Shown here in pieces: positions 24,058 through 64,000 of a DNA stretch of 64,000 nucleotides (position 1 is the first letter of the stretch; each line of letters starts with the position of its first letter). The stretch spans positions 323 to 64,322 of the forward strand of contig JBBQZP010000023.1 of assembly GCA_038207585.1 (NCBI GenBank), in the 5' to 3' direction. The stretch comes from Rhodobacterales bacterium (GTDB lineage: Bacteria > Pseudomonadota > Alphaproteobacteria > Rhodobacterales > Rhodobacteraceae). A program made the translations under genes and the position numbers. Below the pieces are notes generated by a model that saw nothing but the letters and a program-made list of their open reading frames with translations, made no database searches and was not told the DNA's origin.

Positions 24058-26337
<2,280 letters not shown>

Positions 26338-34757: not shown

Positions 34758-34999
34758 CCTGCGCCACCATCGGTCAATGCACCTCTGGTCGCGCAACCCG
34801 GCCCGGCGTGTTCGGTCGCTTTCGGCCCTTGCAGCCGTTCGACGCTGTGAAGGGGGTGTTGACATGCGTCTTCCAGACAAACCTGGAAGCGGACAAAGAT
34901 CCGGCCATTCGGGACGGAAATGGTAGTCGCGACCGATCCGGTGATCACCAAAGACGGCGTCCTGTACGAAAAGGGTTGAAACGTTTCGATGCTGCGGCC

Positions 35000-44080: not shown

Positions 44081-45490
44081 ATGAGTCTGGATTTCAAAAA
44101 GCTGGACGCTTTCGCACCACTGGATGAGCAACGCGATACCTATCCGGAACGCTATTCTCCCGTCGAACTTGAATTTCCACTTTTCGGAGACTTCAGACCG
44201 TTCAGCGCCGATCCGCAAGCGCCGGCTGATGGTGACGCAATCGAGGCACCGCCGCTTCACTGCTATGCGATCGTGGATGCCGGGAGGATCGCGCAATTTG
44301 ACGGGCCGCAATCGGTGGCTCCGACCCCCTGCGAAAGCCTTTTCTTCGGAGAGGCCGCGACAGAGCTTTCCGACGTCGCCCCGTATATTCTGCAACTGTC
44401 TCCGGATGATCGTTTCTTACAACGTCTGATGACACAAAGCGACAACGCATGGGATCATTGGGATCGCGCGCCCGCCGTTTATCTGCGGACCAGCGCATCA
44501 CCGGGCGAACTTGTCCGGCATTTCCGCAGCTTCGTTCGGGTGCAGGACCCCGAGGGAAAGTGGTTCTATTTCCGCTTCTGGGAGCCGAAAAGCCTGCTTG
44601 CCGTCTTGCGTGTTCTTGCTGATCATCCATCTGATCTTGCGCGGTTCCTTTTCTTGCGTGATGGGACGCCAATCCACAGTTTCATCGTGCCGACACCCTC
44701 TGAGACCTGGGTTGTGAAGAACGCCATGGCCGAACAGCCGGAGCGCAAGCCGTTCGTTCTGCGCGCGGCCTACCGGCAGGCGTTCGATGCAAATGTCGAA
44801 GACAGATTTGCTGCAGAATTCGCCCAAAGCCTGATCACTTCGGCCCCCAGGCAGGCCGCGGCACTCGGTATTTCCGAGGCGGCACCCATCGCAGCGATGA
44901 TCCGGCAGATCGTGTCTGACCTTGCCCCGCATGGATTTGAGCGGCGAAGCGATCTGGCGCGCCTTGCGTCCTGCGCGCTTTTCTTCGGGACCAATCTCTT
45001 TCGCGACCCGCGCCATTCCGGGTGGGCCGAGTCTCATCTCACGAAAGCGCGTTTTCATGCGGTCAGCGCCAAGCGTTTTGAAGAAGTGCTGACGAGCGGC
45101 CCTCTTTTCGTGCTGGTCAGCGGTGCAGCGGGGACCGTCAAGGCACGCTCTGCACTGCAGGGCGCGTTTGCCACGACGGATTCGCTTGCGGTCTGGTTGG
45201 GGCGGCTGCTGCGGCCGGACTGGGGCTTTTCCAATCAGACGCAGGTCAACGCCTTCATCCAGTTGTGCCACGACCAGCAAATCAAGGCCGGCCTGCTGGC
45301 TCTAGGCTCGGATACGCTGAAAATTCGGGCGCATTATGTTCTGGCCTGTCTTTATGGGCCACACTTTCTGGTTGACCCATTGCACGACAGAATGCGATCC
45401 GTGTTCACTGAGTTAGCGCATTTCGAGGATTTTATTTTGTCAGAGATGAACCGTCGCGCTGACGCGCTGGACCGCCCTGCAAATGGCTGA
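44081..45490 (+). CDS. DUF4123 domain protein (T6SS adaptor/chaperone family, Tap-1/TEC-like) with ~250-aa C-terminal extension
   Basis: CYAIVDAGRIAQF…SLFFGEAATELSDVAPYILQL…APAVYLRTSASPGELVRHFRSFVRVQDPEGKWFYFRFWEPKSLLAVL follows the DUF4123 consensus (yaiLDaa…lf.g…l…gP.Lv.l…s…l…hLR…v…g…fRfyDPrvl). The stop overlaps the next ATG (ATGGCTGA). Confidence 0.8.
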   Translation: MSLDFKKLDAFAPLDEQRDTYPERYSPVELEFPLFGDFRPFSADPQAPADGDAIEAPPLHCYAIVDAGRIAQFDGPQSVAPTPCESLFFGEAATELSDVAPYILQLSPDDRFLQRLMTQSDNAWDHWDRAPAVYLRTSASPGELVRHFRSFVRVQDPEGKWFYFRFWEPKSLLAVLRVLADHPSDLARFLFLRDGTPIHSFIVPTPSETWVVKNAMAEQPERKPFVLRAAYRQAFDANVEDRFAAEFAQSLITSAPRQAAALGISEAAPIAAMIRQIVSDLAPHGFERRSDLARLASCALFFGTNLFRDPRHSGWAESHLTKARFHAVSAKRFEEVLTSGPLFVLVSGAAGTVKARSALQGAFATTDSLAVWLGRLLRPDWGFSNQTQVNAFIQLCHDQQIKAGLLALGSDTLKIRAHYVLACLYGPHFLVDPLHDRMRSVFTELAHFEDFILSEMNRRADALDRPANG

Positions 45491-47189: not shown

Positions 47190-47659
47190 AAGCTGAAACC
47201 GCGATCTTTGTCGATGCGATTGCCGCCATGCGCGATCACGCACGTCAGCTTGCAACGGATGAGATGATCCTTGTCGACAATACTCCGTTGCCGGATCTGA
47301 TCCAGCAGCGCTATGGGCTGTCATCGCAGAAGCGTCCCGCCAATCTGATTGCGAAGTTGCACGAAAGCGCCCTGTCGGCAGAGCGTTGGGCCGGGCATGT
47401 GGAAACCGCGTTGCACAGTGCAGATACGTTGTCGGCGCTGGCCTACATATCCTCGGCGATGACGTCGGTTGATCGCATCATGGCCGACGGCGGCCCCTAC
47501 GTTGAACCGGGCCTGTTCCAATGGCTCTCGTCACGGCTTGATCCGATCTATTGGCGGGCCGTGCCGGTGTTCAACCTGGGTTCCGAACCACCGGACAATA
47601 GCAGAATCGACGCATACTCCCGTTGGCTTGCGACACATCCGAACCCGTGGTCTGCCTGA
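47186..47659 (+). CDS. candidate cognate immunity protein (no family recognised)
   Basis: The ATG at 47186 overlaps the effector TGA (ATGA). An alternative ATG lies at 47177. ~157 aa with no signal peptide or TM segment. The call rests on position immediately 3' of the toxin domain. Confidence 0.5.
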   Translation: MKAETAIFVDAIAAMRDHARQLATDEMILVDNTPLPDLIQQRYGLSSQKRPANLIAKLHESALSAERWAGHVETALHSADTLSALAYISSAMTSVDRIMADGGPYVEPGLFQWLSSRLDPIYWRAVPVFNLGSEPPDNSRIDAYSRWLATHPNPWSA

Positions 47660-50132: not shown

Positions 50133-50669
50133 GCTCTTCAGGTTTCCTATTCTGTGACGATACCGCTCGTTCTCGAAGATTGGATATCCGTCGAATTCCC
50201 GAAGCGCATGGCGAAAATGTGGCAGCAAGGTGAAGCAAGTAAGAAACCGCTGATCGCCGCAGCCAAATTGTGTACAGTTCGGCACAAATGCACCGACATA
50301 ATTTCGATCGGCTGGAAAGCTCCTAAGTTTTGATCGTTCTGGCAATTTGTTGCCGTCCGCCATTTGCTGATGGGCAGGCCTGCTCCAATGGCTTGAGAAT
50401 CGACCGTAGTCATAGCGGATCGGAAATTCGCAAGCCGCCCGCCCTACGCAAGCCGGTTGCTGCAAAATGGGGCATGTGTGCGCAGGCCTGGGACGGAAGC
50501 CATCCCGGCGCGGCTAAGCCTGATTTTTTTCTGGCCGGGCATGGAACAATCCGGCATATTGATCAGGCTATTGAGCAGAAGAACAAGTTTTTTGCACGAT
50601 TCTGAATAGAAGTTGCCGCAGTAAGGCCTGCGCGTTTCAGTGGACGTTTTTGACAGAAAGGTCTTTGGC

Positions 50670-51866
50670 ATGAACGGGACGAAAATTCTCGCATTGACGA
50701 AGTCGACCGGCGGCATTGCACTTTACAACCGTCTGCTTCTGTCCGAACTCCGATTGCTTGGCGCAGACTCCCACACAATATGCCTTTCCGAAAACGCAGA
50801 AGAATACGCAAGCAATCTTTCGAAATGCGGCCTGAGCGCGCAGCCAATGGCCATGGCACGGTATCGTATTGATCCCATCGGAGACCTGAGGGTTTTGATG
50901 AGAATCCGTTCGATTGTACGGTCAATGGCGCCTGACCTGATCATCTGTCACGGCAGCAAACCCGGGTTTATCGGGCGCATCCTCGGCCGGATGACCGGCT
51001 GCCCCGTGATATACCGGCAGGCTTCATTGCCATTCCTGCGTCGCGTGCAGGGCAACAAGGCACCATTCTACTGGGTGCTCGACTATCTGGCGGGGACGCT
51101 GGGCGGGCACCTTGTGACACTTACAGAATATGCGAAACGCGAAACACTTGCCTACAAACTGGCCCGCCCTGACCGGATCACCGTTATTCGCACCGGGGTG
51201 GATGTTGATAGATTTTGTCCACCGAATGACCGCGACACTGCAGTGCGCGGCCTTGGGCTTGATGCGTCCCGACCGGTTGTCGGCTGGATGGGGCGACTGG
51301 AACCACAGAAGGCGCCGATCGATTATGTTGCGGCACTCAAAATCGTGGCGCCTAAGCATCCGCAGGCGCAGTTCGTGATTGCCGGCGACGGACGGCTTCT
51401 GGACAGTGTGGCGCAAGCGGTCAGCGATGCCGGATTGTCGGACAGGGTGACGATGCTGACGTGGCAGCAAGACCCTGTGCCGACGCTGCAGGCTTTTGAC
51501 ATCTACGCGCTGAGTTCGCTTTGGGAAGGGCTGCCCCTGACGCTTCTTGAGGCGATGGCCTGCGGGTGCTGCTGCGTATCTACGGATGTGGATGGATGCG
51601 CCGAGGCGATTGATCACGGGACCACAGGGGCGCTCTTTGCGTCGGGCGATCCGCAGTTGATGGCCAATGCGCTGGATGCGGTGCTGAGTGACCCTGATCT
51701 GCGCAAACGCTACGCAAGTCAGGGGCGGCAACGGGCCGAAACGCTGTTCAACAAAAAGACGATGGTGGCGAATTGGATCGATCTGATCGGGTCGCTGACG
51801 TCGCATTCCAGCGTCCGGGCGTCGCGGTCTGGCGCCGCCACCGAACCAGTCAGAAAGCGCGGGTAA
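50670..51866 (+). CDS. GT4-family glycosyltransferase
   Basis: Start taken at the ATG at 50670 (MNGTKILALTKSTGG). C-terminal EX7E region SLWEGLPLTLLEAMACGCCCVSTDVDGCAEAIDHGTTG. Confidence 0.8.
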   Translation: MNGTKILALTKSTGGIALYNRLLLSELRLLGADSHTICLSENAEEYASNLSKCGLSAQPMAMARYRIDPIGDLRVLMRIRSIVRSMAPDLIICHGSKPGFIGRILGRMTGCPVIYRQASLPFLRRVQGNKAPFYWVLDYLAGTLGGHLVTLTEYAKRETLAYKLARPDRITVIRTGVDVDRFCPPNDRDTAVRGLGLDASRPVVGWMGRLEPQKAPIDYVAALKIVAPKHPQAQFVIAGDGRLLDSVAQAVSDAGLSDRVTMLTWQQDPVPTLQAFDIYALSSLWEGLPLTLLEAMACGCCCVSTDVDGCAEAIDHGTTGALFASGDPQLMANALDAVLSDPDLRKRYASQGRQRAETLFNKKTMVANWIDLIGSLTSHSSVRASRSGAATEPVRKRG

Positions 51867-51932
51867 GTGCCAGATACGTCACATTCCTCTGCGACATGCG
51901 CCGTCGATCACCCGCAGCGTCTTCAGATTTGC

Positions 51933-53111
51933 ATGGTGATTTCATCGTACCACCCGATTGTCGGAGGTGCCGAGAAGCAGGTTGCGCAACTGGCCAGTCT
52001 GATGATGAAAGAGGGACATTCCGTTACCGTTGTGACCCGGCGTTATCCCGGACTGGACCGCACCGAGACGATTGACGGGATCAGTGTGGTGCGGGTCGCG
52101 GTGCGCAAGCCGTTTGGCTCCGTGGGTTTCATTCTTGGGGCGGCGGCGGCCATCCGCAAACTTCGGCCCGACGTCGTGCATTGTCATTCGCTTTTTTCAC
52201 CTGCTTTGGCGGGGGCTCTGGTCCAGCGATTGTCCGGCATCCCGTTTCTGGTCAAACCGATGTGCGGTGGCGAAGCAACCACCGTGTCCGAAAAGCCGCT
52301 GGGGCGTCAGCGACTGTCCTATATCGGCGGTGCGGTGAACACCTTTCTGGCCGTCAGCCACGAGATCGAGGAAGAACTGGTGCATCTTGGCATCCCAACG
52401 CGCAAGATCCGGTTCATCCCGAATGGCGTGGATGGCAGCCGGTTTCATCCGGCGGCAACAGCCTTGGAAAAGGCCGCCTTGCGCAAAACGCTGGGATTGC
52501 CAGCGGATCTGCTGTTTCTGTTTGCCGGTCGAATGGCGGCGCAAAAGCGACTGCCCCTGATGCTGGAAGCCTGGCGAAGCGTGATCGCGCAATTTCCCAA
52601 GGCAAAGCTGCTGATCGCGGGGGCGAACCGGTCTTCCAGTTCGGAATTTCAGGCCACGTTCGGCGAGGCGGAGGGTATCCCCGACGCGCTGCTTGACCAA
52701 CCTGGCGTGCAGCTTTTGGGTCATGTCGATGATATGCCAACCTTGTTGCGGGCATGCGATGTCTTTGTTCTGCCCTCGGCCCGCGAAGGCCTGTCGAACG
52801 CCCTGCTTGAGGCATCGGCAACTGGTCTTGCGACCGTTTCGGCGCGGATCGGGGGGGCACAGGATTTCATCGTGGAGGGCGAGAATGGTCTTCAGTTCCC
52901 GGTCGATGATCGGGATGGCCTGGCAGCGGCGCTTCTTTCGCTAGCACAGGATGCAGAGTTGCGGGCGGCTTTGGGTGCTGCCGCCCGGCGAACGGTTCTG
53001 ATCGATTACGACATTCGCCAGACGGCCGCGCGCCTGTTGCGCGAATATCAGACCCTGCTGACGGGTGACCGACACCACCCGACCGATGCGCGGCGGATCG
53101 GCAATGTCTGA
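51933..53111 (+). CDS. GT4-family glycosyltransferase
   Basis: MVISSYHPIVGGAEKQV N-terminus (alternative GTG at 51867). SAREGLSNALLEASATGLATVSARIGGAQDFIVEGENG. Confidence 0.8.
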   Translation: MVISSYHPIVGGAEKQVAQLASLMMKEGHSVTVVTRRYPGLDRTETIDGISVVRVAVRKPFGSVGFILGAAAAIRKLRPDVVHCHSLFSPALAGALVQRLSGIPFLVKPMCGGEATTVSEKPLGRQRLSYIGGAVNTFLAVSHEIEEELVHLGIPTRKIRFIPNGVDGSRFHPAATALEKAALRKTLGLPADLLFLFAGRMAAQKRLPLMLEAWRSVIAQFPKAKLLIAGANRSSSSEFQATFGEAEGIPDALLDQPGVQLLGHVDDMPTLLRACDVFVLPSAREGLSNALLEASATGLATVSARIGGAQDFIVEGENGLQFPVDDRDGLAAALLSLAQDAELRAALGAAARRTVLIDYDIRQTAARLLREYQTLLTGDRHHPTDARRIGNV

Positions 53112-54000
53112 CAAGGGCCCGATCTTTGTGCTAGGCCTGCAACGGGGCGGGACCAATCAGTTGCTGAACGCCTTGCGTTCACATGCAGATACCATCTGGC
53201 CGGACGGCGAATTCCACGAGGTGCTGCGTCCGCGTCGGCCTACGTCGCTTGATGCAATACGCAGGTTATTGGGTTATCTGCCGTTGCTGATCCGCAAGGG
53301 CGACGTGCTGAACCCGCGACGTCGGCCGGTGCCGCTTGATCCGGCGGGTCGATCCTGGGTCGCACATTCCCTGCGTCAGGCGACACAATCCAATCTGGCC
53401 AAGGTTGCGCAGTACAAGGCGGCGCTTGCAGACCACGGGCTTAGCCCGGCACATCGCACGCCGGACGCGCGGATGCTGGTCAAGTTGGTGAATTACAATG
53501 TCGGCCTGGCACAGGATCTTGCTTTGGCCTTTCCGAATGCCACGTTCGTGGGCCTGATGCGGGACCCTTTCGGTATTTGCGAAAGCATGATGGCGCGCGG
53601 CGCAGAGCCGACAGATATTCTGCCCTTGTACAGCTATGTCGGAGAAGAATTGTTGCGGCTGGAAGCTGAAGGTCTACCCGTAAAGATCGTACGTCTTGAA
53701 GACATGATCTCTGACTTCAAGCTGTCGGTCGAGGATGTGTATCGCTTCTGCGGTCTTGATGTAAGCGCGATGACGGGCATATGCCTTCAGATCAAAGAGC
53801 GGATAACCGATGCGGCGGGCGCGCTGACAAGCATCCGGAAGGTTGATCGCTTTTACAGTTTCGACCAAGTCAACACGCATATGCGCGGTGATATCAACGC
53901 AAGGGCCCTGGAACGCCTGACCCCCGAAGTCATCCGTATGGTTGAGCGTACCTGCGCGCCGATCATGGAACGTTTCGGATATGCGTCACCCGCACATTGA
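53104..54000 (+). CDS. sulfotransferase-fold protein (divergent)
   Basis: The ATG at 53104 overlaps the preceding stop (ATGTCTGA). 5'-PSB-like IFVLGLQRGGTNQL and 3'-PB-like FVGLMRDPFGICES motifs in the expected order and spacing. Confidence 0.6.
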   Translation: MSDKGPIFVLGLQRGGTNQLLNALRSHADTIWPDGEFHEVLRPRRPTSLDAIRRLLGYLPLLIRKGDVLNPRRRPVPLDPAGRSWVAHSLRQATQSNLAKVAQYKAALADHGLSPAHRTPDARMLVKLVNYNVGLAQDLALAFPNATFVGLMRDPFGICESMMARGAEPTDILPLYSYVGEELLRLEAEGLPVKIVRLEDMISDFKLSVEDVYRFCGLDVSAMTGICLQIKERITDAAGALTSIRKVDRFYSFDQVNTHMRGDINARALERLTPEVIRMVERTCAPIMERFGYASPAH

Positions 54001-54058
54001 TGCAGGCGATATGTTACCTAAGCCCGCGAAGCGCCAGCGCGCCGCAATCACGCCAGTA

Positions 54059-55528
54059 TCATGTCAGAATTAAGCGGGAAGATTCCCCTTTCTGCTGCGG
54101 TCTTGTGTGGTGCAACAGAACGATCATGTTCATCTCCACGGCAAGAGACATGACGAACCACAAGAAGCGCGGGAAACTGTCCTGCAGAAACGTCATAGAT
54201 GCCATATACCCGGCAAATCCGGCCCCGAAGGCGATCACATGCCGGGCAAGTCTTTCATCGCCGACACTGCGCGCTGTCTTGACCGCCCGGAAGATGCTTG
54301 TCGCCGCGCCGCCAATGATTGCAAGAAGCAGGCCAAGACCAAGAAGGCCCACCTCGGCCAGATACTCAAGATAAAGGCTGTGCGTTGACCGCCCCTCACC
54401 CCGAAAAATCAGGCCCAACTCAAGCGCCAGATTCTGGTAGTGCATCTTGAAGTTCCCGACACCCACACCCAGAACGGGATAATCCTTGAACAGCTCGAGC
54501 GCGACCCGCCAACTGGCAAGCCGTCCTTCGGTGCTTGTATCGACCGCCTCTCTGGAGGTGACTGCGCCTATGATCGTTCCAAAATGCTCGCGGCTTTCGG
54601 GGCTCATCGATATGATGGCGATCGCCGTCGCGATTACAAAGGCAAGACCAAACGTCATCAATTGTCTGAGCGAGAGGCCCGCGCCAAGCAGCATCAGCGC
54701 AAGCGTCAGCCCGATCAATCCGCCACGCGATTGAGTGGCAAGAAGGCCAAAGACCAGCAGGCTTGCGATGCCCGCCCAGAATACCCCGGCGACAAGCCCG
54801 CGCGCGTTCAGAACCTGAAACAGCGCCAGCGGGATCGTGAAGACAATGATCGTCGCAAAGAAATTCGCATCTTCCAGAGGGCCGGAAAAGCGACCGCTGT
54901 TCTCGATCACCAGGGCAAATCCATAAAATCCGCCTGAAAAGCGCCCGAATGCAAGCTGATACGCCCCGATGGCACAGATAAACGCAACAGATAGAACCGT
55001 CACCGTGGTCGCCGTCTCGAACCCGCGGCGGTTCGTCATGAACGCCAGCGCAAGCAGGGCCACAATCGCATCCTTGACGAAATCGAGCGAGAATTTCAGG
55101 CTCGTTTCCCAGCCCTGAGCGTAGGTGGCGCTGAACAATTTCATGCACAGGATCAGCAAAAGACAGCCAATGGCCAGCCAGCCGATGTAGGGAGGCTGAC
55201 GGTAGATCGTCCAGCGCGCAAGGATCAGCATCAAGAGCGCTGGCGCCGATATTTTAGCAATCGACGGAAGGCCGAAGTGAACGATGAGGTTATCCGACAT
55301 GTTCGTCACGATAACCATGACCAGAAGTCCAAGCGCGACCAGCGGATACCGGATCGACGTGGCGATCACGAGGAAAACCACCGGCGCCAGCAAAAGCACA
55401 AAGGGTGATTTTCCGCCGATGACAACGGCCACGGCGGCAGCGGCCAACCCGGCCAGAACAATTGCAGCCAACCCCCTGTAGCGCAGAGGCAATGATGCCG
55501 CGAACCACGGGAGGGTCTGTGCCGTCAT
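54059..55528 (-). CDS. O-antigen ligase/polymerase family membrane protein (Wzy-like)
   Basis: 489-aa protein with more than 10 predicted TM segments and a large loop region (…LATQSRGGLIGLTLALML…) typical of the Wzy_C family. The start overlaps the upstream sulfotransferase stop. Confidence 0.7.
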   Translation of the reverse strand: MTAQTLPWFAASLPLRYRGLAAIVLAGLAAAAVAVVIGGKSPFVLLLAPVVFLVIATSIRYPLVALGLLVMVIVTNMSDNLIVHFGLPSIAKISAPALLMLILARWTIYRQPPYIGWLAIGCLLLILCMKLFSATYAQGWETSLKFSLDFVKDAIVALLALAFMTNRRGFETATTVTVLSVAFICAIGAYQLAFGRFSGGFYGFALVIENSGRFSGPLEDANFFATIIVFTIPLALFQVLNARGLVAGVFWAGIASLLVFGLLATQSRGGLIGLTLALMLLGAGLSLRQLMTFGLAFVIATAIAIISMSPESREHFGTIIGAVTSREAVDTSTEGRLASWRVALELFKDYPVLGVGVGNFKMHYQNLALELGLIFRGEGRSTHSLYLEYLAEVGLLGLGLLLAIIGGAATSIFRAVKTARSVGDERLARHVIAFGAGFAGYMASMTFLQDSFPRFLWFVMSLAVEMNMIVLLHHTRPQQKGESSRLILT

Positions 55529-56511
55529 GACGGGCGACGCCGTTTTTGCAGACGGTTGCCGATGTTGATCCTGAGGCCGTCGACCAATCCCTTTTTGCGC
55601 ATGTAGCGCACGACAGATCGGATGCTGTCCTTGCCGGCAACAAAACCACGCATGGCTATCGAAAGCGGAACATGCCGAACGGCATGGTCAAGGTGATAGG
55701 GGGTTCCTGCAGCGCTGGTATAGACGATCTCTTCGATCCGGCGTTGTTGCCGGGGTGTGAGACGTTGCCGGAACTTTCCAAGATTGGACGAGTCAATAAA
55801 GCTCTTTCCGGCCGCGCTTCCGATGTTTTCCGAGGGCCGCGCCAGTGACGTCATGTCGGACACATAATCAACGCCCAGAAAATCGCAGGCCCGTTTCAAC
55901 GCAACCTCTGGATTGCCAAGCAGATCTTCATAAAAGATCTCCATATAGTCGCCGCTCAGAACCGCTCCGTCACGGCGGCCCGCTGCGACATTGCGGGCCC
56001 ATTTCGTGGCAGTGCGATAAATGTCATGGCGCCATGCCGCCCGGACCGAAAGCGCCACATCGCGCGGATCGCGGATGATATGGATAAACCGGGCCTGCGG
56101 CAGGATTTCCTTCAACAGTGGCATTTCCCGAACATATGACGGGGTCTTGTCGCCCCATATTGCGGTCGGCGCGGCGTCGGGATCGCCATAGAATCGCAGG
56201 ATCATGCCAAGCGCTTCCGTCCAGTTGCGCGCCGCGTTCAGCGCATCAAAATCGGTCCGCGCCATCACGGGTTTGCCCATGCGCCGCGCAAAGATCTGGA
56301 ACGGCATGCGGTCAAACTCATGAAAAAAGCTGTCGAGATCGACGTGAAACCGGTCTGCGCGCCCACCAAACTTGCGATAGAGATAGGGTATGAAGTGCGA
56401 TTCCGGGTCACACAGATTGATCTGGGAATTTCTGTTGAGAAGATCCCGCAGCAACTTGGTTCCGCTGCGCGGACTGCCGACAACAAACAAGGGGCCAGAA
56501 AACACGGTCAT
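55525..56511 (-). CDS. sulfotransferase family protein
   Basis: LFVVGSPRSGTKLLRDLL (5'-PSB) and FIHIIRDPRDVALS (3'-PB). Confidence 0.8.
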   Translation of the reverse strand: MTVFSGPLFVVGSPRSGTKLLRDLLNRNSQINLCDPESHFIPYLYRKFGGRADRFHVDLDSFFHEFDRMPFQIFARRMGKPVMARTDFDALNAARNWTEALGMILRFYGDPDAAPTAIWGDKTPSYVREMPLLKEILPQARFIHIIRDPRDVALSVRAAWRHDIYRTATKWARNVAAGRRDGAVLSGDYMEIFYEDLLGNPEVALKRACDFLGVDYVSDMTSLARPSENIGSAAGKSFIDSSNLGKFRQRLTPRQQRRIEEIVYTSAAGTPYHLDHAVRHVPLSIAMRGFVAGKDSIRSVVRYMRKKGLVDGLRINIGNRLQKRRRPS

Positions 56512-56554
56512 GGTTCTTTTTGCAACTTACTCTGCCTGAGGAAACCGGAGGTGA

Positions 56555-57463
56555 TCATGCGGGGGGTTCAAGCCAGGACGACAGATCGAGGCCCGCAAGA
56601 TCCTGCAGCCGCAAGATATCCTCCCGGTAGATCGATAGGAGCTTGTGATGAATCTCGGGCGGGATCGACGGCGCGTCGCCAAGATTGCGTGTCTTTGCCC
56701 ATCGCGCCATGTTGCGCGCCCAGCCGGGCAAGGCCGGACGCAGGACATTCCGGGTCAGCCGGTTCTCGATCAACGAATTGAAGAATTTCGAACGCGGGTA
56801 GCTGCTGACGTTGTGACGCTTGTTCAGGGACGGCTCAAATGTCGGATCGACCTCCAGAAAAGCGAAGATGCCCTGCAGGACCGCTAGATTACCACGGGCG
56901 AAATCTTCATAGCGAAACAGCATCAACTGGTCGCGCGGGAACAGGTCCAGATAGCGTTTGACCTGCGGATAGTAAAAGCTTGCCTGCACATGATGCGCGT
57001 TTTCATCAAACGACTCGTGCATCTCGCGATGCTCTCTGCCGGATCGGACCTGCATGACATAGCCCGAAAAGGCACGATGCACCGGATTGCGCAGACTTGC
57101 GATTAGCTTCACATTCGGAACATGTTCCCTGATTCGTTGCGGCGCGCTTGGGCTTTCCAGATAGATAGGCGAGTTCTCGCCCCAAGCCTGTGACGGATCG
57201 GCGTCCCTGAACAGGGCCTCGTAATCGTCCAGCGTCCGGATCGCGAAATGATCGTTGCCAAACCGCTCCATCCGGTCACGCGCTTCGGCACCGCCATCAT
57301 ACGCGAAAAAGCGAATTTCCTTTGCAGGCATGAAGATCTGGGGATGCTGCTCCATATAGCGATAGATCGCGCTGGTCCCTGCCTTTGCGGCACCGATGAC
57401 AAGAAAATCGGGCAGAGTTTTGGCGTTGACGCGATGCATCTTGGCGGTTGATCCACCGGTCAT
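56555..57463 (-). CDS. sulfotransferase domain protein
   Basis: Start trimmed to the ATG at 57463, which overlaps the flippase stop (ATGA). DFLVIGAAKAGTSAIYRYM (5'-PSB) and IASLRNPVHRAFSGY (3'-PB). Confidence 0.8.
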   Translation of the reverse strand: MTGGSTAKMHRVNAKTLPDFLVIGAAKAGTSAIYRYMEQHPQIFMPAKEIRFFAYDGGAEARDRMERFGNDHFAIRTLDDYEALFRDADPSQAWGENSPIYLESPSAPQRIREHVPNVKLIASLRNPVHRAFSGYVMQVRSGREHREMHESFDENAHHVQASFYYPQVKRYLDLFPRDQLMLFRYEDFARGNLAVLQGIFAFLEVDPTFEPSLNKRHNVSSYPRSKFFNSLIENRLTRNVLRPALPGWARNMARWAKTRNLGDAPSIPPEIHHKLLSIYREDILRLQDLAGLDLSSWLEPPA

Positions 57464-58908
57464 GAGGCGCTCCTTCTTCTCAGGACATAGCGCGACCCTG
57501 CCGCGCGCAGTTCGGGCACCATAAGGCCTGCCATCATGACATATGCAGCACTGAAAACCGCCGTTCCCGCCAGAAGACGGGCAAGTTCGGACCCGGCGTG
57601 CGCATAAAGCACAAAGAACGCGGCCGCAGACGCAACACCTGCACACAGGAAAGCGGGCGCCAACGACTGCAACGTATCCTGCACCGTGATGTTCACGACC
57701 CGCCGAGTGACGATATAGGTCGGGATGAACCGAAGGATCGCCAGCACCAGTTGTGCGATTGCAACAGCGGTGATGCCAAACGGAACGGCCGCACAGATCA
57801 CCACCACGAACATCGGCAGGTTGATCAATGACACGCGGAACAACAACTCGGTCCGGTTGACGGCCTTGAGCAACTTGCCGGGCACCATGTTCAAGGTGCT
57901 GATCGCGAACGACAGGGCAATGAACTGCATCGGCACAACCATGTCATACCACTTGGGCGGGTAGAGAACATGCACCAACGGCCCCGACATGACTGCAATC
58001 AGCGCCCCCACCCCAAACATCAGCAAAGCGCAATAGCGTAGCGACTGCGAGTAGTAGTGCCGCAGCATTTCAGGTTCGGCCTGAAGTTTCGACATGACCG
58101 GATGCAACACCGACCCGGCGACGGTGGTAAAGTTCTTGATCCCCATTTCCGGAATCCGGAACGCAAGCGCATAAATGCCAAGGGCGGCCGGCCCCAGAAA
58201 CTTGCCGATCAGCAGATTGTCCAGAAGGCGTGGCGTGGCGTTGATCGTCTCGGCCCCGATCAGGTGTGATCCATAGCGGAAAACCGACCGGATCGACGCC
58301 ATGTCAGGCATACGGTCCGGTCGCCACGGGCGGATGAACAAAAGGGCGATCGACCCGGCGATCCCGCCCGCAAGATAGCCAATGACCAGCGCCCAGACCC
58401 CATATCCCATGAGCGCCAGTGCGATCGACACAAGTCCCTTTGCAAGACCACGAATGACATCAGGCAATATCTTGTCGCGCAGTCGAAGCTCCCGGTACAG
58501 GAAGCTCATGTTGACCGTGGTCGAGGCGGTGATGACCAGCGATATCGCGATGGTGCCAAGCAGGCCTTTCAACATGGGCAGCGCATAGGCTGTGGCAACC
58601 AGATCGGCCGCCCCCCACAGGATCAGCGCCATCATGCATGACATGCCCAGAGCACAGTAGAAAACCGCGTTTGCTATCTCGTCGACCCTGTCGCGCGCAG
58701 AAATCAGCGCAGACCCAAGCCCGAATTGCGAGATGATCTCGAAATATCCCATGATCGCAAGGCAGATCGCCATCAAGCCGAACTCGGCAGGACTGACGTA
58801 TCGGGCGATGATGATCACTGCGACAAGATTGAGCACCTTGGTCGACAGAAACGAAACGTAAGCCCAAGCCATATTGGAGGTCGTCGCTTTAGCCGACGAA
58901 AAAGACAT
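57460..58908 (-). CDS. Wzx-like polysaccharide flippase (MOP superfamily)
   Basis: ~480 aa, about 12-14 TM segments, N-terminus …NMAWAYVSFLSTKVLNLVAVIIIARYVSPAEFGL typical of Polysacc_synt proteins. ATG at 58908 after GAGAAGGA. Confidence 0.8.
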   Translation of the reverse strand: MSFSSAKATTSNMAWAYVSFLSTKVLNLVAVIIIARYVSPAEFGLMAICLAIMGYFEIISQFGLGSALISARDRVDEIANAVFYCALGMSCMMALILWGAADLVATAYALPMLKGLLGTIAISLVITASTTVNMSFLYRELRLRDKILPDVIRGLAKGLVSIALALMGYGVWALVIGYLAGGIAGSIALLFIRPWRPDRMPDMASIRSVFRYGSHLIGAETINATPRLLDNLLIGKFLGPAALGIYALAFRIPEMGIKNFTTVAGSVLHPVMSKLQAEPEMLRHYYSQSLRYCALLMFGVGALIAVMSGPLVHVLYPPKWYDMVVPMQFIALSFAISTLNMVPGKLLKAVNRTELLFRVSLINLPMFVVVICAAVPFGITAVAIAQLVLAILRFIPTYIVTRRVVNITVQDTLQSLAPAFLCAGVASAAAFFVLYAHAGSELARLLAGTAVFSAAYVMMAGLMVPELRAAGSRYVLRRRSAS

Positions 58909-59260
58909 AGACACGATCCTTCTCAAAAAAACCGGCGCGCAAGCTCGCCGTATCGATCAATAAAAATGCAATGCGGCTCAAAGAGGGGCTGACTTGAACG
59001 AACATACGAATCGCATTATTATACGTCGATTGAGTATCCTTTCCAGTTTAAATACTGCCTCATTAATAGGTAGCTTCTTGCGTGAACGCACAACATGTTG
59101 ACGCGACGCATCGTACGAACAAGCGGAAATCGCAATCGGTGCCATACGCGGCAATTGCGATGATCTGACCTGTTGTCGGATCGGCTGGCCGATGTTACGG
59201 AAGAACGACTATGAGATTGAAAACCATGAATTTATGCTCATACTGCTGTTATCTTAGAGG

Positions 59261-60433
59261 TTGGTGTACATTTTGAATCGCATTCGTCTGGCCGTCGTTG
59301 TATTTTTATGCGTGCTTGCGCCTCTGGCGTTCTATGCCGTGAAACAGGACAAAATGTATGAGGCGCGCGCGCTCATACTTTTTGCGCTCGGGTGGGAATA
59401 TACCTATGTACCAGAGGCAAATCAGGCGGGTGCAAAGGCGCCCAACACCGGTGACTTCGAAGGTTTCGTGAACGCGGAAATGTTGCTTCTGGACAATCCG
59501 CAGCTGGTCCGGTCCGCGCTTGAGACGGTAACTCTTTCAAAGGTTTACCCGGATCTTCCGAATACGGAAGAAGGGATGCTTGCGGGCATCCTTGCATTGG
59601 ATGCGGCGACGGGTGTGGAGCTTATCACGGGGTCGTACGTTGTAAAGGTTGCGGTGCGTCACCCTGATCCGTTGATTGCGGCCGAGCTTACGAACGCAAT
59701 GACGACGGCATTTCTGGAATTGCGTCGCGGGTTGTACAGCGGGCCCGAGATCCGTTCAATCACCCAAAGGCTCAAGTCCGCACGAATGGATTCGGATCTG
59801 ATTGATTCCCAGATTTCCGATATAGTTGGATCTCCGGATCCGACCGCCTTTGAAGCAAAGCTTGAGACGATTGGCCGCGACCAGCTGCAGATGACATCGG
59901 ATTTGCGCGAATCGTCATTGATGCTGATCGGATTGAAAGAGCGGCACATCAAGCTTCAAAATCAGCTCGGTCAGGATAGCGAGCTTCTGGACACCGATGT
60001 TGCAATCGCGGAAAATGAAGCACGGGTTGGATATCTTGACGAACAGATTTCAACGAATGCCGCTGAGATAAGCAAGATGTCGGCCATTATGCCGCGCGTG
60101 CGATGGCTGGGCGAAAGCCAGAAGCAGCAAGCCAACCGGACAGTCGAACTTGAAATGCGGCTGCGTGATGCGAAGGCTGTTGCCGCGTCCGGTTTCGACA
60201 ACGTGCGCGTGATTGAATCCGGTGTTCCGCCCCTGCGGCCGATCAGCATGCCGCTTTCGACGCGGCTGATACTGTCAGCCATTGTCGCCTTGGTCGCTGC
60301 CTTTGCTGCCTTTGCAATATCGGTACTTTTTGGATCCGACCGGATGCGTCGATCCGGATTTGCCGCAAACCGGGATTTCTTTTACGGCGGCGCGCAACGA
60401 GAGTCCGAAATATCGCGCACCTTTGTAAAATGA
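59261..60433 (+). CDS. polysaccharide chain-length determinant (Wzz/PCP) protein without kinase domain
   Basis: N-terminal TM followed by a Wzz-type motif (YEARALILF…NAEMLLLDNPQLVRSAL), a long coiled-coil, and a C-terminal TM (LILSAIVALVAAFAAFAISVLFG). TTG/GTG start after TAGAGG. No Walker A tyrosine-kinase module. Confidence 0.7.
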   Translation: MVYILNRIRLAVVVFLCVLAPLAFYAVKQDKMYEARALILFALGWEYTYVPEANQAGAKAPNTGDFEGFVNAEMLLLDNPQLVRSALETVTLSKVYPDLPNTEEGMLAGILALDAATGVELITGSYVVKVAVRHPDPLIAAELTNAMTTAFLELRRGLYSGPEIRSITQRLKSARMDSDLIDSQISDIVGSPDPTAFEAKLETIGRDQLQMTSDLRESSLMLIGLKERHIKLQNQLGQDSELLDTDVAIAENEARVGYLDEQISTNAAEISKMSAIMPRVRWLGESQKQQANRTVELEMRLRDAKAVAASGFDNVRVIESGVPPLRPISMPLSTRLILSAIVALVAAFAAFAISVLFGSDRMRRSGFAANRDFFYGGAQRESEISRTFVK

Positions 60434-60491
60434 CGTTCCGTGAGTGTGGCAGGACAGGCGCTTGTCTGACCAGCACAGTTACAGCCTAGGG

Positions 60492-61724
60492 ATGGACGAT
60501 CCGGCGATGGAAAAGGCCAATCCGGCGATACCCCAAAAAGTCACAGCCGGCGCGCCAGCGGTCGCGCCGTTGCAGCTTGGCTATGTGATTGACACGCTCG
60601 TCACCGGTGGCGCTGAGCGGCTTGTTCTGACCTTCGCCGAAACGGTGCGGCACCGGGATGATGTTGCGCTGACGGTTTTTGTTCTGAACGACGGCCAGAC
60701 ACAATTTCGCGACTACATCGAGGGCCTTGGCACCCGGGTCGTCACCCTGCCGGGGCGGAACCTTGTGGATTTTGGTCGGTTTTTGCGCCTGATCCGGGCC
60801 TTGAAGCAAGCCCGGATCGAATATGTTCACGGCCACTTGGCCTCATCGACAACGCTTGGGTCTTTTGCCGCGTTCTATCTGAGAATTCCGTTCGTTACGA
60901 CGATACACAACGTACGCCCCAGCGTCCAAAGGGTGCGACCCGTCCGACGGTTTCTCTATTGGGCGGCGCTGCGACTGCCCGGTGTCAAGCTGATCGCCGT
61001 GGGAAAAGCCGTTGCCGAGGCGATCCGAACCGGTGAAGGTTTGTCCGGCAGCACCGTCGTGGCGAATGCGGTTTCGCCAAATGTCGTGGCACCGGCTGGC
61101 GCACGGGAGGCGATGCGCCGTGAATTGGGGTTGCAAGACCGCGACATTGCGCTGGTCTGCGTGGGGGCCATCATCGGGCAGAAGGCCCACGACGTTCTGT
61201 TTGACGCATTTGCACTGATTGCTGCACGGGATGACCGGGCCATCTTGCTGATCGTCGGTGATGCCCGCGAACCCGACAGAATGGATCGACTGGCAAAACA
61301 GACAAAGGCGCTTGGCATTGATGGCCGCGTCCGGTTTCTGGGGATGCGACGCGACATTCCCGAAATCCTTGCGGCGAGCGATATCTTTGTCAGTTCCTCG
61401 GATTGGGAGGGGGCGCCGGTGTCACTGCTTGAGGCTATGGCAAATGGATTACCGTCGGTTGTCACCGATGTTGGTGAAAACCGGCTTGTTTTGCAGGATA
61501 CAGGTTCGGTTCTGGTGCCGACACGCAATCCCGAAGCTTTGGCGAACGGAATCTTTGAACTGATCCGTGACGAGGATCGGTGCCGCGAAACGTCTGGACA
61601 TGTGCGCCGATTGGCTTTGGGGAAATACGGCGCCGACGCCTGGGTTGAGCATCTGCTTGATTTCTATGCACGAACCGGCCAACGGAGCGACTGGCATCAC
61701 CCCGCTGCGACGCAAGACGACTAG
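60492..61724 (+). CDS. GT4-family glycosyltransferase
   Basis: LGYVIDTLVTGGAERLV N-terminal motif. SSDWEGAPVSLLEAMANGLPSVVTDVGENRLVLQDTGS. Start ambiguous (60492 or 60507). Confidence 0.8.
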   Translation: MDDPAMEKANPAIPQKVTAGAPAVAPLQLGYVIDTLVTGGAERLVLTFAETVRHRDDVALTVFVLNDGQTQFRDYIEGLGTRVVTLPGRNLVDFGRFLRLIRALKQARIEYVHGHLASSTTLGSFAAFYLRIPFVTTIHNVRPSVQRVRPVRRFLYWAALRLPGVKLIAVGKAVAEAIRTGEGLSGSTVVANAVSPNVVAPAGAREAMRRELGLQDRDIALVCVGAIIGQKAHDVLFDAFALIAARDDRAILLIVGDAREPDRMDRLAKQTKALGIDGRVRFLGMRRDIPEILAASDIFVSSSDWEGAPVSLLEAMANGLPSVVTDVGENRLVLQDTGSVLVPTRNPEALANGIFELIRDEDRCRETSGHVRRLALGKYGADAWVEHLLDFYARTGQRSDWHHPAATQDD

Positions 61725-61753
61725 TTGGATCTACGTCTTCGGATGCAACCGTC

Positions 61754-62929
61754 CTACTGCGTTTGAACTTCGAAACGCACCATCACAACGTCGTCCGGCC
61801 CAAGCGGCGTTGTCAGACCGGCGACGGTTGGCGTGGCCGAGCCTGATTTGTAGACCTCGTACACTGTTGCGATAATATCAGCACCCAGGCTTTGCGCGGC
61901 CGCCGGGTTCACGGTCTGAAGATACTGAAGGCTCGCTTCAAGTTCATTGCGGGCAAGCAAGACCTGCTGGTCCGCGTTGATCTTGTCGTCGAGAATATTG
62001 TATTCGTATTTCATCTGCTCAACGCTGAATTCACTGTCCGCATTTGCAGCCGTCTGCCGGGCGCGGGCCTCAAACGCTGCGGCTTCCAGTGCGTCCGCCC
62101 GGAAACTGTCCATCTTGACCTGCAAATCAAGGGTCTGTTCGCGCCGCACCAATCCGCGTTCCGCCAGATCTGTGACCGTGTTCAGCTGTTCTTCCGTGGC
62201 TCTCAGCTGACTGTCGATCAGGTCGCGGCGCTGCATGAAGAGTTTGGCTTCGTCATTGGCCAGTGTCTTCTTGCGTTCGGCACCTTCTGAAAACCGCTCG
62301 CTCAGCAGGCGCCGCAGACCGATCAGGTCGATCTGATTGGTCAACGTATCGTCGACGACGTTCTGCTCCGGTGCAGGGGTCTGACCGGCAAGCCGCGCAA
62401 GCTCTGCGTCCAGCCCATCGCGCTCGGCCTCGGCAAATTTCAAATGCGTCTGAGATTCCAGAACGCGGCGGCGGGCGGCGTCAATCTCACGATCAAAACT
62501 CGCCTCTGCAGCCTGTCGTTCAAACCCGCCGGCCAGAGCGACAGCTTTCATAACGTTCATACCGGGACTGTAGGCATAGGAACCCGGGGTCTGGACCGAG
62601 CCGAGAACAAAAATCTTCCGGAATTCGGCAATGTCGACCAGCGCGGATTCCTTGCTGGAAAACTTTTCGGCAGCTCGTTCGACGATGCGGTCCTCGATCA
62701 TGGTGAATGTCGCCCCGACCGCCGGAATCTCGCCCAGAAGATGCAAAACGACATTGCCGTCGGCGCGCACCGTGAAGGTGCCCGAAATCTCGGGCTTGCC
62801 GTAAACCGACACTGTCAGCTTGTCGCCCACCTGTACCTGATAATCGGGCAGACCTTGCGTGAACGCGGGCATTGCAAACAGCGTAGTGAAAACCAACCAG
62901 AGCAGGGCAATCAACCTTTTAACGGCCAT
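61754..62929 (-). CDS. outer-membrane polysaccharide export (OPX) protein, ExoF-like, with long C-terminal coiled-coil
   Basis: ATG at 62929 after AAGGAA. Signal peptide MAVKRLIALLWLVFTTLFAMPAFT. Poly_export motif YQVQVGDKLTVSVYG…FTVRADGNVVLHLLGEIPAVG, an SLBB-like segment, then ~230 aa of heptad-rich sequence. Confidence 0.7.
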   Translation of the reverse strand: MAVKRLIALLWLVFTTLFAMPAFTQGLPDYQVQVGDKLTVSVYGKPEISGTFTVRADGNVVLHLLGEIPAVGATFTMIEDRIVERAAEKFSSKESALVDIAEFRKIFVLGSVQTPGSYAYSPGMNVMKAVALAGGFERQAAEASFDREIDAARRRVLESQTHLKFAEAERDGLDAELARLAGQTPAPEQNVVDDTLTNQIDLIGLRRLLSERFSEGAERKKTLANDEAKLFMQRRDLIDSQLRATEEQLNTVTDLAERGLVRREQTLDLQVKMDSFRADALEAAAFEARARQTAANADSEFSVEQMKYEYNILDDKINADQQVLLARNELEASLQYLQTVNPAAAQSLGADIIATVYEVYKSGSATPTVAGLTTPLGPDDVVMVRFEVQTQ

Positions 62930-64000
62930 TTGGAAGTTCCTTTGCCTGGGGCGATGGTACGCGGACATCCACGGCCCGGCGATGTGCCCGGTCGGGCTCC
63001 AGGATTGTATCATAAAGTTCAAAGATGCGGCGACGCATTGCATCGCTGTCGAAGGATTTGGCGACCGTTTTCCGTGCCGCACGCCCCAGCCGAACGCGGG
63101 CCTCGTCATCGTTCAGAAAACCGGCAATCGCCGCAGCCAAGGCAGCGGGGTTCACAGCTGGAACAAGCGCGCCATTCACCCCGTTTTCAACCACATCGGG
63201 TATGCCGCCAACAGCAGTTGCGACGACGGCGCGGCTCATCGCCATTCCCTCCAGCAGGACCATCGGCAAACCTTCCCAGCGCGATGAAATCGCAAGCACG
63301 TCCACCGCCGCCAGAAGTTGCGGCATCTGGCTGATTTCGCCGGTCAGTATGATCCGGTCACGCAGCGGGCCTGCGGCGTCGATCGCAGCTGCAATCCTGT
63401 CACGAAGTGTCCCGCCACCAACGATCAGGAAATAGGGTTCTGGCTTCAGGTCCGCCAACGCGACGGCCGCCTTGATGAAATTGTCGTGGTCTTTTTGCAG
63501 GGTCAGGCTTCCGATCACCGCCACTACCGGAGCATCGGCCGGCACGCCGAATTGTGTCAGATCCATCGGCTGACACAGCGGGTCGAACTGCACAAGGTCG
63601 ATACCATTCACGATCGTCATGATCCGGTCACGGCGATACCCGGAATACTTTCCCACATGGTCGGCAACCCGGTCGGACACGGCAATGCACGCGTCTGCCT
63701 TTCCAACCGCAATGCGGTAAAGCGCGCTCATGAACCGGTTGCGGCGCCACGGGTCGGTGTTGTGCAAAGTGATCAGGCGTCGTATCCCGGTCAGCCGCGC
63801 CGCCATCTGGCCGATGAGGTCACTTTTGACAAGATGTGTGTGGACGATATCGGGCCGCAAGCGGCGCATGAGAGACAGCGTACGAAACAGGGCCATCGGA
63901 TCGCGTAATCCGCGGTGGCTCAGTCGGGTCATCGCAACGCCACGTTCGGCAATCCGCTTTTCCAGCGGGCCTGGGGTAAAATAGGCGACATGCGCGACAT
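62919..64000 (-). CDS. GT4-family glycosyltransferase (5' end beyond the right edge)
   Basis: SSRWEGLPMVLLEGMAMSRAVVATAVGGIPDVVENGVNG. The reading frame stays open upstream of the listed ATG (…VAHVAYFTPGPLEKRIAERGVAMTRL…) to the window end. The N-terminus is therefore missing from the window. Confidence 0.75.
   Translation of the reverse strand, partial: VAHVAYFTPGPLEKRIAERGVAMTRLSHRGLRDPMALFRTLSLMRRLRPDIVHTHLVKSDLIGQMAARLTGIRRLITLHNTDPWRRNRFMSALYRIAVGKADACIAVSDRVADHVGKYSGYRRDRIMTIVNGIDLVQFDPLCQPMDLTQFGVPADAPVVAVIGSLTLQKDHDNFIKAAVALADLKPEPYFLIVGGGTLRDRIAAAIDAAGPLRDRIILTGEISQMPQLLAAVDVLAISSRWEGLPMVLLEGMAMSRAVVATAVGGIPDVVENGVNGALVPAVNPAALAAAIAGFLNDDEARVRLGRAARKTVAKSFDSDAMRRRIFELYDTILEPDRAHRRAVDVRVPSPQAKELPNGR

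Follow-up and report, generated by a model that had tools for sequence, protein, structure and literature searches.

A conserved Wzx/Wzy-type polysaccharide locus with three sulfotransferase genes in a marine Rhodobacterales bacterium: a candidate pathway for an acidic sulfated heteropolysaccharide

Contig JBBQZP010000023.1 of assembly GCA_038207585.1, which belongs to a Rhodobacterales bacterium of the Rhodobacteraceae, was analysed over 64,000 nucleotides (positions 323 to 64,322 of the forward strand), and this whole stretch is referred to here as the window, to which all coordinates apply. The right-hand part of the window, from 47,882 to beyond its edge at 64,000, contains a compact block of 12 genes that encode glycosyltransferases (GTs), a Wzx flippase, a Wzy_C-family membrane protein, a polysaccharide co-polymerase (PCP), an outer-membrane polysaccharide exporter (OPX), a pectate-lyase-like protein and three sulfotransferases (ST1, ST2 and ST3). 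As judged from its genes, this block is probably a Wzx/Wzy-dependent locus of marine Rhodobacterales for an acidic sulfated heteropolysaccharide, either secreted or capsular. The gene list of an initial annotation, made from the letters of the sequence (four family 4 glycosyltransferases, named GT4a to GT4d here, Wzx, a Wzy-like protein, OPX and three sulfotransferases), was reproduced by the map of open reading frames (ORFs) and by Pfam profiles. From left to right, the features are the following.

47901..50150, minus strand: polysaccharide lyase of the PL1/PelZ-like type, 749 residues (PDB 9buj, NCBIfam PelZ, Pfam Beta_helix, synteny)
50151..50669, no strand: spacer of ~500 bp from which the lyase gene and the GT4a-GT4b-ST1 operon diverge, presumably holding promoters (ORF map, sequence)
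50670-51866, plus strand: glycosyltransferase GT4a, 398 residues (Glycos_transf_1, E = 5e-36; Glyco_trans_4_4; orthologues of 55-90% identity in related loci L005-L011)
51867-53111, plus strand: glycosyltransferase GT4b (Pfam, orthologues); its GTG start abuts the GT4a stop, with an alternative ATG at 51933
53104-54000, plus strand: ST1, divergent Sulfotransfer_3 sulfotransferase, 298 residues (Pfam, E = 1e-14, 55.7 bits; fold)
54059-55528, minus strand: Wzy_C-family membrane protein, putative repeat-unit polymerase, 489 residues (PF04932, E = 1.8e-22, 80.2 bits against a cutoff of 31.7)
55525-56511, minus strand: ST2, sulfotransferase of the XssE/CurM-ST/TPST-like subfamily, 328 residues (Sulfotransfer_3, E = 2.8e-31, 109.9 bits; Sulfotransfer_1, 43.6 bits)
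56555-57463, minus strand: ST3, sulfotransferase of the XssA/heparan-sulfate-sulfotransferase-like subfamily, 302 residues (Sulfotransfer_1, E = 4.5e-14, 52.9 bits; Sulfotransfer_3, E = 1.3e-14, 55.4 bits)
57460-58908, minus strand: Wzx flippase of the MOP family, 482 residues (Polysacc_synt_3, E = 9e-71, 238.9 bits; NCBIfam MOP flippase, E = 1.5e-55; hydrophobic segments)
58909..59260, no strand: spacer separating the divergent wzx and PCP genes, in which the cluster has its best promoter-like matches
59261-60433, plus strand: kinase-less PCP, 390 residues, assigned by predicted fold; the public gene call starts at 59273 (386 residues)
60444-61724, plus strand: glycosyltransferase GT4c (Pfam, orthologues); start uncertain, GTG at 60444 or ATG at 60492
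61754-62929, minus strand: OPX exporter (Poly_export, E = 2.8e-15, 56.7 bits; SLBB, E = 4.7e-9, 36.4 bits; both above cutoff)
62919->64000, minus strand: glycosyltransferase GT4d, cut by the window edge (Pfam), with ~33 N-terminal residues missing compared with the full-length 392-residue orthologue in L005

The initial annotation placed the left limit of the cluster at 50670, which is too far to the right, as the conserved block starts at 47882, ~2.8 kb further left, and includes the pectate-lyase-like gene. This start was chosen because the nucleotide collinearity (89-90% identity) with the locus L005, from the Rhodobacterales metagenome-assembled genome (MAG) JTS-AC362, extends from 64000 down to 47882 and stops there, 19 nt past the lyase stop codon. 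The GC content is 0.573 for 47901-64000 and 0.579 for 50640-64000, versus 0.611 for the left 47.9 kb, of which even the lowest 16-kb sliding window (0.602) is above the cluster; the drop in GC that had been noted by eye is, once computed, real but modest. At the other end, the frame of GT4d is still open at base 63998, and the cluster runs past the right edge, as annotated initially. A contig search with exact proteins returned a single 9.6-kb fragment of the same locus, and the continuation was derived from the 90%-identical MAG locus L005, where the remainder of GT4d is followed by a fifth GT (412 residues) and a large protein with the C-terminal repeat domain of the lyase.

The genes of the block are closely packed. 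The junction sequences reveal ATGA stop/start overlaps at wzx/ST3 and at ST2/wzy, an 8-nt overlap between GT4b and ST1 and an 11-nt overlap between GT4d and OPX. Because of the ATGA overlaps and the GT4b/ST1 overlap, all three sulfotransferase genes are tightly linked to assembly genes; the translational coupling to wzx and wzy proposed earlier for two of them agrees with these junctions, and the third, ST1, overlaps GT4b. In the divergent region between wzx and the PCP gene, promoter-like matches are located at 59045-59018 (minus strand, a 10-of-12 match), 58994-59022 and 59217-59244 (both plus strand), with a total count that is not above that of shuffled sequences. Across the cluster, consensus scans for promoters and terminators likewise gave counts not above the shuffled expectation, and they are not used as evidence.

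The three ORFs in which PAPS (3'-phosphoadenosine-5'-phosphosulfate)-binding motifs had been noticed were found at exactly the coordinates of the initial annotation, and all of them pass the Pfam gathering cutoffs, which are 27 bits for PF13469 (Sulfotransfer_3) and 22 bits for PF00685 (Sulfotransfer_1). Both PAPS-binding motifs are present in each protein and are invariant among the respective homologues, and an acidic residue at the presumed catalytic position is likewise invariant in each of the three families, the equivalence of catalytic residues being judged by sequence alignment and motif position. ST1 is the weakest of the trio by sequence. It carries the 5'-phosphosulfate-binding (5'-PSB) motif QRGGTNQ, the stretch WPDGEFHE and the 3'-phosphate-binding (3'-PB) motif RDPxxxCES (RDPFGICES); in the alignment of its homologues, QRGGTNQ, WPxGExH and RD...CES are invariant, including E36 and H38 within WPDGEFHE. 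The search of NCBIfam and the sequence search of the PDB gave no match for ST1. Its AlphaFold2 (AF2) model, built with 24 homologues, has a mean pLDDT (predicted local distance difference test) of 91.4 and a pTM (predicted template modelling score) of 0.90, and the Foldseek ranks 1-49 are all PAPS sulfotransferases, with probabilities of 0.99-1.00 and TM-scores of ~0.3-0.55 (best ~0.5), so that the predicted structure of ST1 is that of a sulfotransferase. The immediate family of ST1 is small and essentially restricted to the Rhodobacteraceae, with 39 homologues in a word-index search, and an exhaustive profile search yields 312 cluster representatives at E<=1e-10, of which 73 reach <=1e-30.

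ST2 contains the motifs GSPRSGTK, PESH, WGDKTPSY and IRDPRDVALS, which are invariant over 18 homologues of 44-100% identity. In the PDB it matches 4gox (5e-10) and 4gbm, the sulfotransferase domains of OLS and CurM, as well as tyrosylprotein sulfotransferases (TPST). In the alignments with the CurM and OLS domains, E37 of the PESH motif falls within their PELH stretch, which we take to hold the catalytic Glu, a role that the alignment output itself does not show. A conserved basic C-terminal tail (KGLVDGLRINIGNRLQKRR; window 55525-55620) is found in ST2 and all its close homologues and, speculatively, could be an amphipathic membrane anchor near the lipid-linked substrate. The motifs of ST3 are GAAKAGTS (5'-PSB), KEIRFF and LRNPVHRAFS (3'-PB), and K27, E49, R125 and S133 are invariant among its homologues, XssA included. 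Its PDB matches are the bacterial sulfotransferase structure 3rnl (7e-47), heparan sulfate (HS) 3-O-sulfotransferase (3-OST; ~1e-10) and N-sulfotransferase (NST; 6e-7). E49 in KEIRFF, presumably the catalytic base, aligns with the QEIHFF stretch of HS 3-OST-5. Pairwise, the three proteins share at most ~26% identity in partial alignments, and hence they are not recent paralogues. A segment scan revealed no transmembrane (TM), signal or hydrophobic segment in ST1, ST2 or ST3, which fits an action in the cytoplasm on a lipid-linked unit.

Among the assembly proteins, the Wzy_C protein is polytopic, with multiple TM-like segments that a simple scan merges into nine stretches. The PCP is a more cryptic case. 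No significant Pfam or NCBIfam match was obtained for its ORF (GNVR, E = 0.19), and hhalign comparisons with Wzc and WzzB of E. coli gave non-significant probabilities of 2% and 0.3%, respectively. The protein has two terminal TM segments, one N-terminal and one C-terminal, and the top 50 Foldseek hits of its AF2 model (pLDDT 81) are exclusively Wzc (best E = 2.6e-11), WzzE, KpsE and WzzB. The Wzz/PCP label given initially thus stands by predicted fold and by the two terminal TM helices, and it fails in all sequence-profile tests; according to the model, the protein is a kinase-less PCP. Only 31 homologues were detected, none with a Pfam domain; every named organism among them belongs to the Rhodobacteraceae, and most are unnamed metagenome proteins. 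This PCP clade is lineage-restricted and invisible to current profile libraries.

The OPX protein is composed of an N-terminal signal-like segment, a Poly_export domain, a single SLBB domain and a C-terminal stretch of ~220 residues that appears helical/coiled-coil by eye. It is probably not a lipoprotein, since there is no Cys near the signal-like segment. Orthologues with a single SLBB domain are found in the related loci L002 and L005-L009, and the one of Limimaricola matches the HlyD-like hairpin family PF25994 (HH_AprE). It is possible that the OPX reaches across the periplasm to the kinase-less PCP. The label "ExoF-like" given to it initially holds at the family level (OPX proteins of rhizobial replicons, ~25-30% identity) and not at any closer one. 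As another type of system, an exosortase/PEP-CTERM-type exopolysaccharide (EPS) pathway was considered and rejected, as the NCBIfam matches to stp2, PEP_O_lig_1 and pepcterm_export are all far below their cutoffs.

Relatives of the locus were reached at the protein level: a search with the ST2 protein led to the Roseobacter group, followed by a genome scan and contig look-ups, and a megablast search of the cluster against the PLSDB plasmids gave no match. In L005, every protein is 89-94% identical and free of frameshifts. Collinear loci exist in at least nine Rhodobacterales genomes. The whole set, including the lyase, is collinear in L005, in two Limimaricola species (one of them L. cinnabarinus), in a Rhodobacteraceae MAG, in Tritonibacter multivorans and in Parasedimentitalea. 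In Ruegeria atlantica the local order is kept and the locus is partly sampled, and in Ruegeria marisrubri most genes are present but rearranged. Identity to the other genera is 40-73%, with the catalytic residues conserved. In two complete genomes the locus is plasmid-borne, namely on plasmid unnamed3 of Limimaricola sp. AA108-03 (L006, 156 kb) and on plasmid pQS-1 of Parasedimentitalea psychrophila (L063, 58 kb).

The sulfotransferase complement varies from one to four per orthologous locus. Three are present in the window, in L005 and in Limimaricola; ST1 is absent from L004 and from the R. atlantica locus; and L008, L009 and L063 carry a different ST3-like gene at another position. On pQS-1, there are four sulfotransferases, GT4a and GT4b are fused into a protein of 811 residues, and a UDP-glucuronate decarboxylase is encoded. 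The syntenic locus of Limimaricola includes a Bac_transf priming enzyme and that of Parasedimentitalea a WcaJ-like "sugar transferase", and a priming transferase is therefore expected past the right edge of the window. A UDP-glucose dehydrogenase or UDP-glucuronate decarboxylase gene adjoins the locus in both Limimaricola and Parasedimentitalea.

The protein encoded at the left end of the block begins with a right-handed beta-helix domain and ends with two repeats of ~128 residues that are 46.5% identical to each other, and it has neither a signal peptide nor a TM segment. The N-terminal domain matches PDB 9buj, a "pectate lyase", with E = 7e-40 over 290 residues and, weakly, VexL, a Vi-antigen lyase homologue (1e-3). 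A beta-helix protein flanks GT4a-GT4b in every related locus that was sampled on that side. Together with the sugar-nucleotide genes of the relatives, the lyase hints at uronic acid in the polymer, and no ugd gene was found within the window. The repeats, which occupy the C-terminal third of the protein (47901-48800) and have no Pfam match, recur in a very large neighbouring protein of related loci (L005 48-1172 and the upstream regions of L008 and L009); in Parasedimentitalea, this protein, which has no signal peptide, is encoded by a 6.3 kb gene on pQS-1. The repeats may represent a carbohydrate-binding module specific to this polymer.

To the left of the lyase gene, at 44081-47659 (plus strand), lie a gene for a DUF4123 protein (type VI secretion system (T6SS) adaptor family, E = 5.5e-21) and, after it, two overlapping ORFs of 568 and 160 residues, for which no Pfam or PDB match was found. 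No VgrG or PAAR protein was identified among the scanned ORFs neighbouring this module, which looks like an orphan adaptor-effector-immunity cassette. The module is situated where the collinearity with L005 breaks (47882), and L005 has HlyD/ABC type-I secretion genes at this place. According to Pfam scans, the left 47 kb of the window encode transporters and ordinary metabolism, including an 837-residue protein (20848-23361, plus strand) in which a Na+/H+ exchanger domain is fused to a C-terminal cyclic-nucleotide-binding domain and, after it, a heavy-metal P-type ATPase (23887-26337). The sole tRNA of the window, tRNA-Thr(CGT), lies at 310-385 (plus strand). This tRNA, RsgA (34445-36046) and the many sugar ABC transporters suggest that the left part is chromosomal or belongs to a chromid rather than to a small plasmid.

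As reported in the initial annotation, genes for PAPS synthesis, a priming transferase and a tyrosine kinase are absent from the window, which was scanned with Pfam (30 left ORFs) and by six-frame tblastn with CysC, CysN, CysD, WcaJ, Wzc and Wzb of E. coli as queries. The tblastn search gave no match to CysC (APS-kinase); its queries for ATP sulfurylase were of the CysDN type and did not include a Sat-type (non-CysDN) enzyme. Matches to CysC, CysN and CysD are missing from the window and from ten related loci, and PAPS would have to come from elsewhere. An initiating phosphoglycosyl transferase was found in the window neither by Pfam nor by tblastn. Wzc kinase and Wzb likewise have no tblastn match in the window or in the ten related loci, and the PCP has no kinase domain. 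A bacterial tyrosine (BY) kinase and its phosphatase define group-1 capsules only and not every Wzx/Wzy system.

Taken together, the sulfotransferase profiles, the conserved PAPS-binding and presumed catalytic residues, the predicted fold of ST1 and the coupling to a Wzx/Wzy/PCP/OPX set that is syntenic across genera support the reading of the block as a sulfated EPS or capsule locus, which had been proposed initially. On this sequence basis, the exported polysaccharide most likely carries up to three kinds of sulfate group. The following pathway can be proposed. A phosphoglycosyl transferase encoded outside the window would prime undecaprenyl phosphate, on which the four GT4 enzymes and at least one more GT encoded past the edge would assemble an oligosaccharide repeat at the cytoplasmic face of the inner membrane. 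ST1, ST2 and ST3, as soluble cytoplasmic enzymes, would place sulfate from PAPS on the lipid-linked unit, each at a position of its own; the PAPS would be supplied by genes elsewhere in the genome. Wzx would then flip the already sulfated unit across the membrane, the Wzy_C protein would polymerise it under the control of the kinase-less PCP, and the OPX protein would export the polymer across the outer membrane. Finally, the pectate-lyase-like enzyme, whose secretion probably needs no signal peptide, would trim or release the polymer by beta-elimination, a mode of action that would imply uronic acid in the chain.

Several points weigh against this reading. The Wzy_C family also holds O-antigen ligases (WaaL), and the sequence cannot separate a polymerase from a ligase. 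The product in this organism is predicted from genes, and the window includes neither the priming transferase nor all of the cluster. The lyase matches NCBIfam PelZ with 2.9e-55 and 188 bits, far under the equivalog cutoff of 840, and its RxPxxR-type motif reads RNATIK (FRNATIK), with the Arg kept and the Pro replaced, so its activity and substrate are uncertain. In-cluster cysDNC has been called a hallmark of loci for sulfated capsular polysaccharides (CPS) (PMC11641403, PMC11766843), and Pfam and tblastn detected no PAPS-synthesis genes, either inside the window or within 10-20 kb on the flanks of the ten related loci. The sole measured sulfate content found for an EPS of the Roseobacter group, that of Salipiger mucosus, is low, at 0.9% w/w (PMC2953402).

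The first alternative concerns the identity of the polymer, which could be a sulfated O-antigen-like polysaccharide on the lipopolysaccharide, with the Wzy_C protein in the role of a WaaL-type ligase or working beside one. Its family, PF04932, is that of the O-antigen ligases, and its highest-scoring NCBIfam model, although below cutoff, is a "putative O-glycosylation ligase"; the lack of a kinase domain in the PCP is likewise a trait of Wzz proteins. Sulfated O-polysaccharides have been reported in Poseidonocella, another member of the Rhodobacteraceae, according to a reference cited in PMC7281560. However, the conserved block includes an OPX of the Wza family, which O-antigen pathways do not need, the assignment of the Wzy_C protein as ligase would leave the cluster without a polymerase candidate, and a dedicated lyase is better suited to a released polymer. 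An O-antigen-like product is therefore considered unlikely, and a secreted or capsular polymer is the identity favoured here.

The second alternative accepts a functional polysaccharide locus in which at least one sulfotransferase-fold protein has no activity or modifies something other than a glycan (protein tyrosine, a lipid or a small molecule), so that the polymer would be unsulfated or bear fewer than three sulfates. By sequence and fold, ST1 and ST2 resemble TPST and polyketide-synthase-associated sulfotransferases as much as carbohydrate ones, and the deletion of xssE, the homologue of ST2 in the gene cluster for the cyanobacterial polysaccharide synechan, has little phenotype (PMC8205485). 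The variable complement, with ST1 missing from L004 and L010 and ST3 orthologues confined to the nearest clade, and the lack of PAPS genes nearby point in the same direction. Against this, motif residues and presumed catalytic residues do not vary within any of the three families, and each sulfotransferase gene overlaps an assembly gene (wzx, wzy or that of a GT4). Sulfotransferases also stay with the locus from genus to genus, a pattern in favour of enzymes that act on its product. This alternative is regarded as quite unlikely, and sulfation of the glycan by the three enzymes remains the preferred explanation. A silent or decaying island, acquired horizontally and without product under natural conditions, is highly improbable. 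It would suit a GC content about 3.5-4 points below the rest of the window, the plasmid location in relatives and the fact that collinearity with the closest genome ends precisely at the lyase stop, beside the T6SS-effector-like module, but not 12 intact ORFs with overlapping junctions, a second genome of 89-94% amino-acid identity without frameshifts and catalytic residues conserved at 40-73% identity in other genera.

A bolder extension of the preferred reading, offered tentatively and rather doubtful as it stands, would regard the locus as a mobile "sulfation cassette" of the Roseobacter group, often plasmid-borne, in which a conserved Wzx/Wzy scaffold is combined with a variable set of 1-4 sulfotransferases, among them the lineage-restricted ST1 subfamily. 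Its product would be a heavily sulfated, uronic-acid-containing polymer, glycosaminoglycan- or ulvan-like, with its own PL1-type lyase. If true, abundant marine heterotrophs would make algal- or animal-like sulfated glycans with strain-specific sulfation patterns, which would have a bearing on algal-host mimicry and on the recalcitrant pool of sulfated marine carbon.

Sulfated polysaccharides are valued biomaterials and a major, slowly degraded part of marine organic matter. To our knowledge, few bacterial pathways for them have been tied to genes outside cyanobacteria. A concrete, testable genetic basis for sulfated glycans of the Rhodobacteraceae is offered by this locus, together with its orthologues in strains that can be cultured (Limimaricola cinnabarinus, Tritonibacter multivorans, Ruegeria spp. 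and Parasedimentitalea psychrophila). In addition, ST1-ST3 represent three divergent candidate carbohydrate sulfotransferases for glyco-engineering, and the compact Wzx/Wzy cluster could potentially be moved into other hosts, as has already been done with the synechan cluster (PMC13125312).

Full-text literature searches returned no description of this locus and no paper tying sulfated glycans of the Rhodobacteraceae to genes. Besides the Poseidonocella O-polysaccharide, the EPS of Salipiger mucosus is sulfated (PMC2953402), and the Salipiger genome paper names no sulfotransferase. In rhizobia, KpsS of M. loti, NodH and LpsS of S. meliloti, and NoeE carry out PAPS-dependent sulfation of surface or secreted glycans (reviewed in PMC11625862). 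These are alphaproteobacterial enzymes of the Sulfotransfer_3 type, as in the present locus, and ST2 weakly matches the NoeE model and sulfotransferases of Sinorhizobium plasmids. The relationship is nevertheless distant, with ~25% identity and 30 bits for the NoeE model against a cutoff of 500 (the KpsS and LpsS sequences were not part of the comparison), and the rhizobial enzymes are single sulfotransferases rather than a trio inside a Wzx/Wzy operon. With the animal HS 3-O- and N-sulfotransferases and with PDB 3rnl, a functionally uncharacterised bacterial structure, ST3 shares the fold, the GxxK(A/G)GT 5'-PSB motif, the Glu of KE(I/V)xFF and the 3'-PB motif; identity to the animal enzymes is low (E ~1e-10), and the His of their E-x-H-F-F motif is Arg in ST3.

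Among marine heterotrophic Gram-negative bacteria, Vibrio sp. KMM 8419 and Cobetia marina KMM 1449 also have sulfotransferase genes inside a polysaccharide locus, and the structures of their sulfated capsules have been solved (PMC11641403, PMC11766843). Unlike the present locus, in which Pfam detects no ABC transporter, theirs depend on ABC transporters of the kpsMT type, comprise ~70-80 genes and contain their own cysDNC/cysQ.

The closest characterised system is the xss cluster for synechan, located on plasmid pSYSM of Synechocystis sp. PCC 6803, a Wzx/Wzy system with two sulfotransferases that has been studied by knockouts (Maeda et al. 2021, PMC8205485). Synechan carries two sulfates per eight sugars, and its sulfate and sugar stoichiometry roughly tracks the numbers of sulfotransferase and GT genes (PMC8205485). 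In both clusters, the sulfotransferase genes are scattered between those for GTs, Wzx, Wzy and PCP. With 25% identity each, ST2 is homologous to XssE (E = 7e-19) and ST3 to XssA (E = 1.5e-22), and when the five sulfotransferases were compared, the members of each pair were each other's best match. A weak homology also exists for Wzx and for one GT4, and the plasmid location of xss is paralleled by that of the present locus in relatives. In contrast, the present locus has three sulfotransferases instead of two, with no xss counterpart for ST1, fewer GTs, a PL1-like lyase and an OPX gene within the cluster, while xssT is chromosomal, and its Wzy and PCP proteins have no detectable sequence similarity to their xss counterparts. 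Pfam revealed no regulator gene between 47.9 and 64 kb, a region against which the XssQ, XssR and XssS sequences themselves were not searched. The hosts also differ, an alphaproteobacterial heterotroph here and a cyanobacterium there. As judged from these comparisons, the evidence supports a well-conserved Wzx/Wzy-dependent cluster for a probably sulfated polysaccharide among marine bacteria of the Roseobacter group, of a kind already known elsewhere. Four features set it apart: the third sulfotransferase belongs to a lineage-restricted subfamily, a PL1-like lyase is dedicated to the locus, the PCP is cryptic, and the sulfotransferase complement varies between orthologous loci.

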